From assembly GCA_016932145.1 (NCBI GenBank), contig JAFGDI010000188.1:1-25098 (forward strand): 25,098 nt of DNA, in the 5' to 3' direction. Source of the stretch: Sedimentisphaerales bacterium. GTDB lineage: Bacteria; Planctomycetota; Phycisphaerae; Sedimentisphaerales; SM23-30. How positions within the stretch are numbered: position 1 is the first letter of the stretch; each line of letters starts with the position of its first letter. Made by a program: the position numbers and the translations under genes. A model generated the notes under the pieces. The model ran no database searches. It saw nothing but the letters and a program-made list of their open reading frames with translations, and had not been told where the DNA came from. Shown piece by piece: positions 1,568 to 7,294 of this stretch.

Positions 1568-2353
1568 TCAGGTCTTAAATACCAGCTTAAGCGGACAATG
1601 GTCTGACCCCATAACTTCAGTAAGATGACTGCACGAAATGAGTCTGGGACGAGCTGACTCGGTAGCGAAGAAATAATCTATTCTCCAGCCAACATTTCTA
1701 CTACGAGCTCTGGTTTTATAGTCCCACCAGGTATAGCGGTCAGGTTCTTTGTCAAATTCACGAAAGACATCAACAAAACCGGCGGCAATAAGCTCATCGA
1801 TCCAGGCCCTTTCGCAAGGCAAAAAACCTGTAATCTTTTCGTTAGCCTTTGGGCGGGCCAGATCAATTGACTTGTGTGCAGTATTAACATCGCCACAAAA
1901 GACAATATCTGGGCATACCTTACGGCGATTTTTCATATATTTCAGGAACTCATCATAAAATTCCATCTTATAATCCAGCCGGGCAAAGCCGCCTTCTGGC
2001 AGATCGGCACCACCATTAGGGAAATATATAGTATATAATTCCCAATCGTCAAAGCGCAGGCCAATTACCCTGCCTTCGCAATCGAACTTTTCTATGCCAA
2101 AGCCAGTTACCACCTCTTTGGGCTTCACTCTCGACCAGATAGCAGTACCACTATAGCCGGGCCGCTGGGCAGAGTTGACATATAATTCATAGCCTGCTTT
2201 ATGCAGCAGTTCTTCGGGGAATTGTTCAGGTTTGGCCTTTATCTCCTGCAGACAGATAATATCGGCCTCGAAATCATCAAAAATCTGCGAAAACCCCTTG
2301 CCATGTATAGCCCGGACCCCATTTACATTCCAGTTTATTATTGTAGTTGTCAT
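1568..2353 (-). CDS. xth: Exodeoxyribonuclease III (AP endonuclease)
   Basis: Motifs 'NWNVNGVRA', 'DIICLQEIK', 'GYSGTAIW', 'EGRVI', 'IYFPNG', 'CGDVNTAH', 'YTWWDY...NVGWRIDYF' and 'GSDHCP'. Confidence 0.96.
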   Translation of the reverse strand: MTTTIINWNVNGVRAIHGKGFSQIFDDFEADIICLQEIKAKPEQFPEELLHKAGYELYVNSAQRPGYSGTAIWSRVKPKEVVTGFGIEKFDCEGRVIGLRFDDWELYTIYFPNGGADLPEGGFARLDYKMEFYDEFLKYMKNRRKVCPDIVFCGDVNTAHKSIDLARPKANEKITGFLPCERAWIDELIAAGFVDVFREFDKEPDRYTWWDYKTRARSRNVGWRIDYFFATESARPRLISCSHLTEVMGSDHCPLKLVFKT

Positions 2354-2360
2354 AATTTTA

Positions 2361-2504
2361 GTATAGACGCATGATCATGCATCTCATTTTGATTCTTAAT
2401 ACCGTTTCGCACACATACTTTTCTTCAGCGTCCTGAAGCCATAATTATGTATTATCAATATCCTCATTTTTCAACTTCTCAGACGCATAATCATGCGTCT
2501 CTGC
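2361..2504. repeat. Inverted REP doublet (REPIN-like) no. 1: copy 1 (+) 2361-2388 and copy 2 (-) 2477-2504
   Basis: Copy 1 is GTATAGACGCATGATCATGCATCTCATT and copy 2 (reverse complement) is GCAGAGACGCATGATTATGCGTCTGAGA. They match GTAGAGACGCATGATTATGCGTCTCAGA at 23/28 and 26/28, and each has an internal palindrome AGACGCAT-N4-ATGCGTCT (one mismatch in copy 1). Confidence 0.75.
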
Positions 2505-3530
2505 ATTCAACTTTCTTTCAATTTCTTCCAGTTCGTCCCACTTATCTTCATCCTCGTCGATTTCGTCATCGAAATCAGAATCAGACTCATAGAGCATTTC
2601 ACTGACGGCATCTTCTACCGTCTCGCTGAACCCGGCGAGATCTTCGGTAATACTTATGCCATCAGAAAAGAGCTTTTCTGGCTCTGGCTTTTCCATACCA
2701 ACATCACGAAGCAACTCTTCTTCCTCGCTCTGGATCGCGGCTCCGGAAATAGTATTTAGTACCGCCTGCTGCGGGTCAGCTTCTGTAAGGGGAAAGACAT
2801 AGATCGTGCCAAATGACTTTTCCTGCTCAATGCGTATAAGTCTGTGGCGCATCAGTTCCAGAATAGCCAGGAACAAGCCGACAAATTCTTCCCTGCTGGT
2901 GGCCTCGCGGAAAACCGCCTCAAATATAAGCGGTTTGGCCTGCTGAGCCATAGTCAGTATCCGTACCTCATAAACATCGATAGGCGTTTCATCTTCGACG
3001 ACATTATGTGTGGCACGAGCAGCCATAGTCGCAGTCATCAGCCGGGCAAAAGCGTCCATCAGGTCCCAGATCTGCACAGATTCCATGTCCAGTTCCTGCT
3101 CGCTTTTCAATTCCTGCTTTAACCTCTGCAAATCAGCCAGAGGGCGATGGAATTTATTACTCCGCTCTTCGGCACAATCTTCGAGCATGCCGGCGGCATC
3201 TTTGAACCGCTTATATTCCAACAACTGATGGATAAGCTCCAGCCGCGGATCACTGGGATCTGTCGCCCCTTCGCCCTGCTCATCTTCGGGGTTCTGTTCC
3301 CGCGGAATAACCATAAGGCTTTTAAGCTCGATCAAAGTAGCAGCCATAACCAGAAACTCACCGGCGAGATCGACATCAAGCTCCTCCATCAGATTGATAT
3401 AAGCCAGATATTGCTCTGTTATCTTAGCTACCGGGAGATCATATATATCTATCTCATCTCGGCGGATCAGATAGAGCAGCAGGTCCATCGGACCATCATA
3501 TACTTCAAGTTGTACTCTGTAATCAGACAT
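2445..3530 (-). CDS. scpA: Segregation and condensation protein A (kleisin), with a long acidic C-terminal tail
   Basis: N-terminus 'YRVQLEVYDGPMDLLLYLIRRDEIDIYDLPVAKITEQYL...AGEFLVMAATLIELKS', 'DPRLELIHQLLEYKRFKDAA' and C-terminal winged helix 'FLAILELMRHRLIRIEQEKSFGTIYV'. SD GAAGGA at 3535-3540. Confidence 0.93.
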   Translation of the reverse strand: MSDYRVQLEVYDGPMDLLLYLIRRDEIDIYDLPVAKITEQYLAYINLMEELDVDLAGEFLVMAATLIELKSLMVIPREQNPEDEQGEGATDPSDPRLELIHQLLEYKRFKDAAGMLEDCAEERSNKFHRPLADLQRLKQELKSEQELDMESVQIWDLMDAFARLMTATMAARATHNVVEDETPIDVYEVRILTMAQQAKPLIFEAVFREATSREEFVGLFLAILELMRHRLIRIEQEKSFGTIYVFPLTEADPQQAVLNTISGAAIQSEEEELLRDVGMEKPEPEKLFSDGISITEDLAGFSETVEDAVSEMLYESDSDFDDEIDEDEDKWDELEEIERKLNAETHDYASEKLKNEDIDNT

Positions 3531-3540
3531 AAATTCCTTC

Positions 3541-3653
3541 GTAGAGCCGCATAATTATGCGTCTCAGACATTCATTCCAGGCTCCCATCTCACGAAAACG
3601 CACCTTATGTTACTCGGGTTGCATTTCTGAGACGCATAATCATGCGTCTCTAC
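3541..3653. repeat. Inverted REP doublet (REPIN-like) no. 2: copy 3 (+) 3541-3568 and copy 4 (-) 3626-3653, 57-nt spacer
   Basis: GTAGAGCCGCATAATTATGCGTCTCAGA ... TCTGAGACGCATAATCATGCGTCTCTAC. The arms are 26/28 complementary and both start with the GTAG tetranucleotide facing inward. Confidence 0.85.
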
Positions 3654-4621
3654 CTCAGGCCGGTAGCAGACCTTACCTTTTCCATGAGAACATTGGTTTT
3701 TTCTCTGGCTTTACGGCCGCCTTCGGCCAGTACATCATCGACATACGCCGGGTCATTCACCAGTTGCTCGTACTTTTCGCGGTATGGTGCCAGCAGCTCA
3801 TTAAGTTTTTCGGCAACGGCCTTTTTAGCCTCGCCATACCCCATACCGCCTCGTGTATATTTTTCCTGCCATTGGGCCAGTTCCGCTTCATTACAGAGCA
3901 GTTTGAGCATGGCGAAAACATTGCATTTGGCCGGGTCTTTGGGGTCTTCAACAGGCGTAGAGTCAGTCACAATACGCATCACCCGCTTACTACTCTGCTT
4001 GGCCGTCTCGAAAAGGGGAATGGTATTATCGTAGCTTTTGGACATTTTGCGACCATCAAGTCCGGGCACTACCGCGGTATTATCGAGAATGTAAGCATCT
4101 GGTACAGTGAGTATCTCACCATACTGGTTATTAAACTTCTCAGCTATATCGCGAGTAACCTCTATATGCTGTTTCTGGTCCTGCCCAACCGGCACCAGAT
4201 CGCAACTGGTGATCAGAATATCAGCCGCCTGCAAACAGGGGTAATAGAACAGGCCATGACTGGCGGTAAGTCCCTGAGCGACCTTATCTTTATAACTGGT
4301 ACAGCGTTCGAGCAGCCCCATCGGAATCAGGCAGGAGAAGATCCAGCTCAGCTCTGTTACCGCCGGGACATCGCTCTGGCGATAGAAAACCGACTTTTCC
4401 GGGTCAATACCCAGAGCCAGATAGCTCATTGCTACTTCTCGCACATACTCCCGCAGCAGAGCGGGCTCTTTAACCGAAGTCATAGCATGATAGTCAGCAA
4501 TAAAATAATAACAGTGATTGCCCTGCTCTTGCAAAGCCAGAAACTGGCGAATCGCCCCGAAATAATTGCCGATATGCAATTTACCCGAAGGCTGCACACC
4601 GGATAATATAGTCTTAGTCAT
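3650..4621 (-). CDS. trpS: Tryptophanyl-tRNA synthetase
   Basis: 'SGVQPSGKLHIGNYFGA' (HIGH motif), 'IADYHA', 'YPCLQAADIL', 'VPVGQDQKQHIEVTRDIA' and 'GLDGRKMSKSYDN' (KMSKS motif). Confidence 0.98.
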   Translation of the reverse strand: MTKTILSGVQPSGKLHIGNYFGAIRQFLALQEQGNHCYYFIADYHAMTSVKEPALLREYVREVAMSYLALGIDPEKSVFYRQSDVPAVTELSWIFSCLIPMGLLERCTSYKDKVAQGLTASHGLFYYPCLQAADILITSCDLVPVGQDQKQHIEVTRDIAEKFNNQYGEILTVPDAYILDNTAVVPGLDGRKMSKSYDNTIPLFETAKQSSKRVMRIVTDSTPVEDPKDPAKCNVFAMLKLLCNEAELAQWQEKYTRGGMGYGEAKKAVAEKLNELLAPYREKYEQLVNDPAYVDDVLAEGGRKAREKTNVLMEKVRSATGLR

Positions 4622-6814: not shown

Positions 6815-7294
6815 TCAGGCTGTCTGGGAGACCTGCGGCTGAGACACCTGCTGCTCTGACTGGGGCTGCTTATTACGCAGCTCCATCAGCGGGTGACGGG
6901 TACTGTATCTTTTCTCAGAAAGCACAAGCTGGCGGGCCTGACAGGTAGTAGCATTAACTACCAGCGGTCCTTGCAGGTTGCCGGTCAATGCCTGGCCAAC
7001 CTTATTGACTATAATCATGACCTGGGCATTATCAAGATTTTCCAGATCGATAGTCTTGAGATCTTCTGCCTTTACCGGCACCTGATAGTCCGGCACGAAC
7101 AGCAGTGGATCGCAAACAACAAAGGCCAGATTGGCACATTCGATCGATTGCAGCCAGAAGAAGCAATTTTCTGTATTGGTCTGCAATAAGGCGTAATCAT
7201 GATAATCCGGGAAGCCGAGTATTCCCTCAGCAAATCGCATTATGCGTGAACCGTCGATCTCAATTTCGCCAAATCTTGTTGTCTGTATATTCAT
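6815..7294 (-). CDS. fliW: Flagellar assembly factor / CsrA antagonist FliW
   Basis: 'IQTTRFGEIEID...IMRFAEGILGFPDY...FFWLQSIE..NLAFVVCDP..FVPDY...TGNLQGPLVVN...ARQLVL'. The start was reassigned from 7336 to the ATG at 7294 because AGGAGG sits at 7310-7305. Confidence 0.95.
   Translation of the reverse strand: MNIQTTRFGEIEIDGSRIMRFAEGILGFPDYHDYALLQTNTENCFFWLQSIECANLAFVVCDPLLFVPDYQVPVKAEDLKTIDLENLDNAQVMIIVNKVGQALTGNLQGPLVVNATTCQARQLVLSEKRYSTRHPLMELRNKQPQSEQQVSQPQVSQTA

Follow-up and report, generated by a model that had tools for sequence, protein, structure and literature searches.

A GTAG-headed REP family at the trpS-scpA-xth junctions of a Sedimentisphaerales planctomycete and its probable cognate RAYT

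The stretch of DNA analyzed here (the window, 25,098 nucleotides of contig JAFGDI010000188.1 from the Sedimentisphaerales bacterium assembly GCA_016932145.1) carries four copies of a 28-nt GTAG-headed hairpin that are arranged as two inverted pairs, one at the trpS-scpA junction and one at the scpA-xth junction. These elements are very probably members of a GTAG-type family of repetitive extragenic palindromes (REPs), called F1 in the following, whose cognate REP-associated tyrosine transposase (RAYT) is encoded outside the window at G000:C101:4519-5229, with G000 denoting the window's own genome (a metagenome-assembled genome of 2.63 Mb in 398 contigs that is 72% complete and includes the window as contig C301). 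We directly observed the identity of the family, the cognate gene in the same genome, the absence of the copies at the same sites in relatives and their position beside a GTAG. An earlier reading of the window from its letters alone (the sequence-only reading) had proposed a nonautonomous mobile REP family in a planctomycete-like genome, and both parts of this proposal hold, given the order of the organism, the many F1 copies in its genome and the RAYT that goes with them.

Across G000, the F1 consensus (GTAG-AGACGCAT-GATT-ATGCGTCT-C) is found at 127 sites when its 20-nt core is searched with up to 4 mismatches, compared to 2 sites in a reversed-genome control, and with up to 3 mismatches allowed there are 103 copies of the F1 25-mer. 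The GTAG tag is kept in 99 to 114 of 125 copies (ca. 80% to 90%), with a looser 3′ flank, and 76 copies are fully and another 29 partly intergenic, though the crude coding density of the genome is 88%. The innermost pair of the stem covaries (T-A, A-T or G-C, plus C-G in other genomes) and is Watson-Crick in 99% to 100% of cases; the pair next to it is G-T on the GTAG strand, which makes the hairpin strand-specific. A genome-wide count of singlets and inverted doublets, proposed by the sequence-only reading, sorted the copies into 65 clusters, of which 23 are simple inverted doublets and 27 are singlets, the remaining 15 being larger or otherwise multicopy. Adjacent copies point their GTAG ends outward in 34 cases vs 1 of the opposite kind (P = 2e-9), and most of the larger clusters are bounded by a plus-strand copy on one side and a minus-strand copy on the other. 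Doublets are 73 to 227 nt long, and those of a distinct class of 80 to 81 nt share a common, oriented spacer across copies, so the repeated unit reaches ca. 13 to 15 nt past the 28-mer.

Inverted 28-nt ends and a length of 73 to 227 nt are also reminiscent of miniature inverted-repeat transposable elements (MITEs) mobilized by an insertion sequence (IS) with a DDE transposase, in which case the 28-nt arms would be terminal inverted repeats. We consider this exceedingly improbable because a target-site duplication (a direct repeat of any length from 2 to 8 nt at the flanks) was seen at none of 33 F1 clusters, each arm is itself a hairpin, many copies are singlets or parts of alternating tandem arrays, a full-length IS with F1 ends was not found, and F1 both brackets and sits within a Y1 transposase gene. 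We also rejected a CRISPR array, which would have direct repeats and unique spacers of constant length: F1 copies occur in inverted or alternating orientation, and within the arrays the spacers, too, are repeats. Tandem F1 arrays with a fixed period are located at C303:6132-6344 (46 nt), C119:3044-3287 (54 nt), C329:2060-2352 (53 nt) and C314:3473-3904 (101 nt) of G000, and their inner copies lack GTAG and alternate in orientation like those of bacterial interspersed mosaic elements (BIMEs). Where F1 singlets of G000 lie between genes of the same direction, their orientation follows the genes in 9 of 11 cases.

No Y1 transposase gene was found in the window, in line with the sequence-only reading, and the check that it proposed for a RAYT gene flanked by the same repeat came out in its favor: such a gene exists on contig C101 of G000 but is missed by PF01797. 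This search had returned 3 Y1 genes in G000 and 25 in its congeners G001, G002 and G003 together with G005, none of them with F1 within 1.5 kb. The view of F1 as an orphan family without a RAYT was dropped, as the PF01797 result proved to be a false negative when the C101 gene was found later. The clue to the class of RAYT came from F1-like pairs spaced ca. 630 to 700 nt apart in genome G415 and from clusters of F1-like sites in G349 and G428, and tblastn with proteins of the G349/G428/G415 type hit C101 with 37% identity over 241 residues (E = 1e-29). The gene lies on the minus strand as an intact open reading frame (ORF) of 236 residues, and its product is called P0001 here. Upstream, the gap between the end of an F1 REP and the ATG of the gene is 22 nt, the TAG stop codon falls inside the GTAG of a downstream F1 doublet, and past the HUH motif the coding sequence contains three further F1 REPs in frame (residues ca. 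95 to 140). PF01797 missed the gene because these in-frame REPs split the domain. The homologues of G349, G428 and G415 each carry one F1-like palindrome at the same in-frame place, where it encodes VETHGRASL.

E. coli TnpA_REP (PDB 4ER8) is matched by P0001 in a profile search against the PDB (E = 2e-6), and its H59/H61 and Y115/N119 are aligned to the HUH motif of P0001 (MPDHIHAII) and to the P0001 helix with the catalytic tyrosine (IRQYIIDNP). An AlphaFold model of modest quality (mean pLDDT 59.5, core 70 to 90) leaves the REP-encoded residues 96 to 159 disordered and retrieves 4ER8 as the top Foldseek hit (E = 5e-6), followed by the IS608 and ISDra2 transposases. REPs of their own inserted in frame between the HUH and tyrosine motifs are the signature of TnpA_REP subclass 2.4, which has been described mainly from Cyanobacteria and Bacteroidetes and whose REPs include "long" and "double-foot" forms (Quentin et al. 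2018, PMC6006769). P0001 resembles this subclass in having HUH, WQ and YI..NP motifs, albeit with slight deviations (see below), in a variable insertion of in-frame REPs that separates the HUH strand from the helix after it, in having its gene flanked by its own REPs, in the GTAG...CTAC double-foot forms seen in relatives and metagenomes, and in a patchy taxonomy; it differs in its host, a Sedimentisphaerales planctomycete, and in that the G000 copies are mostly single-foot REPs in inverted doublets. These sequence features support the placement of P0001 in TnpA_REP subclass 2.4, reportedly the same as RAYT group 4 of Bertels et al. 2017, and its role as the cognate enzyme of F1.

The F1 copies of the window and the genes around them are listed here by position in the window.

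3626-3653, minus strand: F1 REP, exact consensus copy (28/28)
3541-3568, plus strand: F1 REP, 26/28 match, inverted partner (inverted REP, iREP, in mRNA sense)
2477-2504, minus strand: F1 REP, 26/28 match, tag mutated to GCAG
2361-2388, plus strand: degenerate F1 REP, 23/28 match, tag GTAT, weak hairpin
3569-3625, minus strand: spacer of doublet 1, 57 nt
2389-2476, minus strand: spacer of doublet 2, 88 nt
3650-4621, minus strand: trpS, class I tRNA synthetase (W/Y)
2445-3530, minus strand: scpA, SMC_ScpA
1568-2353, minus strand: xth-like Exo_endo_phos nuclease

All four copies had been located correctly by the sequence-only reading, as had their head-to-head pairing, which we reproduced with the GTAG ends pointing outward in both pairs, and the tight fit of the doublets between the genes: doublet 1 stops 10 nt 5′ of the scpA ATG, adjoining a Shine-Dalgarno-like GAAGGAA, and doublet 2 stops 7 nt 5′ of the xth ATG. 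Matches to the 28-mer are not expected by chance (0 in 100 shuffles of the sequence). The hairpins have stems of 8 to 9 bp and 4-nt loops, and single-stranded DNA folding gives -10.2 kcal/mol for the reference copy vs only -2.8 kcal/mol for the degenerate copy at 2361. The ends of the doublet 1 spacer (AATGCA... and ...GGAATGAATG) match conserved REP extensions of the family, its central ca. 32 nt have no other match in the genome, and the spacer of doublet 2 is unique within the genome. The earlier description of the doublets as similar to REPINs (inverted REP doublets replicating as a unit) thus stands for their architecture only, which is that of the 23 simple doublets and of the outward-facing pairs in general; with both spacers unique, nothing indicates that the window doublets replicate as units, and their replication as such is unsupported.

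Both doublets overlap a reading frame. The TAG stop codon of trpS (3650-3652) is the TAG within the GTAG of copy 3626-3653, and the scpA frame takes in copy 2477-2504 at its 3′ end, reading it as A-E-T-H-D-Y-A-S-E. The scpA frame continues beyond this copy to a TAA at 2445-2447, and ca. 20 C-terminal residues of ScpA are encoded by the REP and its spacer. This TAA sits in a CATAATTATG palindrome (2440-2449) that is identical to the center of copy 3541-3568 and has flanks that look like a decayed REP; the palindrome may be a decayed third REP, in which case doublet 2 may once have been a triplet.

Presence or absence of the doublets in close relatives, a comparison proposed by the sequence-only reading, was as follows: the locus is syntenic in the three congeners G001, G002 and G003, and the four copies are absent from trpS-scpA-xth in all of them. 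The closest relative is G001, with 84% to 88% DNA identity and a ScpA that is 96% to 98% identical; it has an extra gene of 410 aa between scpA and xth (L035:4206-5438) that is not in the window, G002 or G003.

This absence also bears on the possibility that the palindromes are dedicated regulatory sites of trpS-scpA-xth (for instance an attenuator, a terminator or the operator of a protein) and not mobile at all. Their position exactly at the gene junctions would fit such sites, as would the very stable RNA hairpins predicted for both doublets (-57.7 and -51.9 kcal/mol, z = -6.5 and -7.3), the first of which spans from the trpS stop codon to the ribosome-binding region of scpA. More than 100 copies at unrelated loci contradict a regulatory origin, however, and the doublets are missing from the same operon in three congeners, so that we judge this explanation highly improbable; a secondary regulatory effect is possible. 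Intrinsic terminators and known RNA families were rejected as identities of the four REPs, as none of them has a T-tract or any other terminator-like site and Rfam gave no match.

Beyond this locus, F1 sites number ca. 8 in G001 and none in G002, and G003 carries ca. 90 copies of a compensated F1 variant, mostly as singlets. In G003, the strand of the variant switches in blocks of tens of kb (G003:C1, e.g., 175 to 248, 3,796 to 3,871 and 4,104 to 4,155 kb), which suggests that it is co-oriented with gene direction. The outer stem of F1 is present in 19 of 401 Planctomycetota genomes, where the centers vary and are palindromes in most cases; a single distant family accounts for most of these genomes, and one of them, G349, belongs to a different family of the same order. 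The exact F1 25-mer also occurs in 75 metagenome contigs (L082-L156) from many samples with a GC content of 0.32 to 0.66, mostly in symmetric GTAG...CTAC double-foot hairpins; this distribution would reach far beyond the genus of the window. Homologues of RAYT-A, RAYT-B and L001 (a further Y1 gene of G000, see below) were not detected by tblastn in these 75 contigs (491 kb). An adapter or cloning-site artifact, considered due to the occurrence of the 25-mer across this GC range and two CGTCTC sites in its core, was rejected because copies vary, covary, lie in frame within RAYT genes and occupy gene ends.

We have also weighed whether the copies in the window are old, immobile relics that were kept or spread by recombination or gene conversion and not by current RAYT activity. 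Doublet 2 is indeed degenerate (23/28 and 26/28 matches, tags GTAT and GCAG, a weak hairpin), the spacers of both window doublets are unique, and G003 keeps its variant copies with no cognate RAYT detected. Of the 64 copies whose outer stem is exact, however, 58 have one identical center, the RAYT gene has an intact ORF, and the window copies are missing from a closest relative that is still 84% to 88% identical in DNA, all of which makes this reading unlikely.

F1 is one of at least three GTAG REP families in G000, at ca. 103 copies, next to F2 (GTAG-CTCAAGCA...) with 24 and F3 (GTAG-GACAGGCA...) with ca. 31 copies. Doublets of F2 bracket a RAYT gene at C314:1344-2015 and inverted doublets of F3 bracket another at C36:99-710, forming classical REPtrons (C314:1100-2150, L051, and C36:40-860, L003, respectively) whose RAYTs of 203 to 223 aa with a PNHVH motif belong to a different class than P0001; their orthologues in G001 and G003 are bracketed likewise. 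The F2-RAYT orthologue of G003 (L073, G003:C1:4352746-4353393) matches across an in-frame TAG that adjoins the F2 GTAG and ends its open frame, and the C-terminus of this protein may be truncated there. A third type of Y1 gene in G000 (L001, C388:3397-4074, HWH motif) has a full-length REP_Tyr_transpos match and an F3 REP in its 3′ end near the contig edge; GTAG hairpins bracket neither this gene nor any other Y1 gene of the L001 type. F1-like flanks were not found at fifty Y1 loci in five f43 genomes, and a scan of metagenomes in which an F1 REP had to precede MKDIFYN, the N-terminus of F2/F3 RAYTs (the wrong class of RAYT), gave 0 matches. Two short repeat families of G000:C259 (L044:5553-5708 and 6865-6966) are unrelated to F1 and have dozens of matches across G001, where one of the two includes a 21-nt tandem array (G001:C1:3069206-3069419).

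The three families have the GTAG tag, a stem of ca. 8 bp ending in GCA and a loop of 3 to 4 nt in common, raising the question of whether it is not the C101 protein but the enzyme of one of the other REPtrons (F2 or F3) that moves F1, in trans. Such a scenario would suit G003 and G001, where F2/F3 RAYTs are kept and F1 copies exist although a subclass-2.4 RAYT is missing. We nevertheless find it very unlikely, as no family other than F1 brackets or invades the C101 gene, each of the F2 and F3 genes has just its own family around it, and RAYTs and their REPs are known to co-evolve (PMC8266576).

Nine junctions where the F1 tag abuts the 3′ end of a gene were compared, and G001 has a GTAG at the identical position in 6 of them, which compares to a share of 4.5% for G-TAG among stops (P = 6e-7). 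What follows this GTAG in G001 varies: the C152 site has an F2 REP, the C81 site an F3-like hairpin, C259:1913 a decayed F1, and trpS and C259:4155 a purine-rich inverted repeat, so that the sites are shared and used again. The gene end at C152:2498 is thus followed by an F1 doublet in G000 and by an F2 REP in G001 (L231), both starting from the same G-TAG stop. The trpS-scpA spacer of G001 and G003 is filled by a different element of ca. 150 nt with purine-rich inverted arms, which the scpA-xth spacer of G003 holds as well (L035:2843-3000, L037:2828-3000 and L037:4147-4312), and this element seems to have been the earlier occupant of what is the F1 site in the window. At the scpA end, ...GAATG-TAG of G001 corresponds to GAATGCAG at the head of the REP in the window, with 14 nt fewer just upstream; this short match suggests that an ancestral G-TAG stop was lost and that ScpA came to read through the REP. 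As a tentative and rather doubtful generalization, G-TAG stops might be fixed landing pads that are repeatedly exchanged among REP families with RAYTs of their own, possibly via RAYT cleavage and strand transfer just 3′ of the common GTAG.

For F1 as a RAYT-mobilized family, we picture a course of events in analogy to E. coli TnpA_REP and IS200/IS605, published work on which is the basis of our inference (PMC3479197, PMC8266576). P0001 would recognize the folded single strand by its hairpin and 5′ GTAG, cleave DNA close by and join it again, and in this way spread F1 copies into extragenic DNA. In this lineage, copies would have arrived on both sides of scpA, each directly 3′ of a G-TAG. At trpS, the REP tag would have come to serve also as stop codon; at scpA, mutation of the tag to GCAG and a 14-nt deletion just upstream would have led to read-through and the addition of ca. 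20 residues. Each doublet would also fold into a long mRNA hairpin, and effects on the stability or translation of the trpS, scpA and xth messages are plausible.

Several points weigh against this interpretation. In vivo mobilization of REPs by a RAYT is undemonstrated in any system (PMC8266576), and the spacers of both window doublets are unique in the genome. The best NCBIfam match of P0001, REP_Tyr_transpos (NF047646), reaches 43.5 bits vs a cutoff of 80, and P0001 has no Pfam hit (PF01797). While the WQ motif is present, P0001 shows DHIH and YIIDNP where subclass 2.4 has NH[IFV]H and YIxNNP, and it also differs from its examined homologues, which have NHIH or NHLH, YILNNP and one in-frame REP instead of three. 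G003 has its ca. 90 variant F1 copies and no detectable subclass-2.4 RAYT, an enzyme that single-sequence and profile searches did not find in G001, G002 or G005 either, so copy number and presence of the enzyme are not always coupled. Finally, the comparison sites of G001 are not clean empty sites but are filled with different sequence of about the same length, in many cases a further element headed by GTAG, leaving exact insertion boundaries unproven; clean pairs of filled and empty sites were mostly unobtainable with G001 because intergenic DNA is unalignable at 84% to 88% identity and other elements are present.

In itself, F1 is a well-described, ordinary kind of bacterial repeat. It matches the superfamily of GTAG REPs described by Di Nocera, De Gregorio and Rocco 2013 (PMC3733652) in its 5′ GTAG, in stems that measure 6 to 9 bp in that superfamily, in dimers with spacers of 20 to 100 bp, in a location downstream of unidirectional or convergent genes, in TAG stops derived from GTAG, in REPs within ORFs and in the coexistence of several families per genome. 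The families of that study include those of Rhodopirellula baltica and Opitutus terrae, and the F1 stem GAGACGCA is not found in its main text, the part that our comparison covers. Planctomycete GTAG REPs, several families per genome, REP-donated TAG stops, REPs in ORFs and RAYT genes with their own REPs in frame are all already known (PMC3733652, PMC6006769).

Like the REPINs of Pseudomonas fluorescens SBW25 and their group 3 RAYTs (Bertels and Rainey 2011), F1 forms doublets of two short, perfect, inverted hairpins, including the 80- to 81-nt class with a conserved spacer, and its RAYT gene is single copy; the RAYT subclass is a different one, and the two window doublets each have a unique spacer. 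Similarities to the REPs and BIMEs of E. coli and their TnpA_REP (YafM, PDB 4ER8) comprise fold, catalytic residues, GTAG hairpins and alternating arrays, whereas E. coli REPs have bulged, imperfect stems and F1 palindromes are perfect like those of group 3 and subclass 2.4 systems. The C-terminal tail of E. coli TnpA_REP reads GTAG. With IS200/IS605 elements such as IS608 and ISDra2, the F1 system shares a Y1 HUH enzyme, presumably the recognition of single-stranded DNA hairpins, the absence of duplicated target sequence and a location directly 3′ of a fixed tetranucleotide; unlike these elements, the REPs are nonautonomous and the RAYT gene is single copy. In the published model of REPs, GTAG is a guide sequence inside the element and not the target.

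Taken for what it is, F1 provides a fully linked REP/RAYT case in Phycisphaerae in which one small genome houses a family of repeats, the enzyme that goes with it and two sister pairs of REPs and RAYTs. It also comes with a warning for annotation: subclass-2.4 RAYTs with in-frame REPs fall below Pfam and NCBIfam thresholds, so that a "no RAYT" call should not be relied on when PF01797 is its sole basis. At the window's own locus, gene ends have been remodelled by the repeats, which give trpS its stop codon and ScpA a new tail. In one respect only, the system may go further than what is published, namely that different REP families share G-TAG gene ends in sister species; if G-TAG stops truly are landing pads, the same gene end would have F1 in one species and F2, an F3-like element or another GTAG-headed repeat in its congener. 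The sharing of sites by REP families at G-TAG stops offers a testable handle on the way in which REPs select their landing sites.

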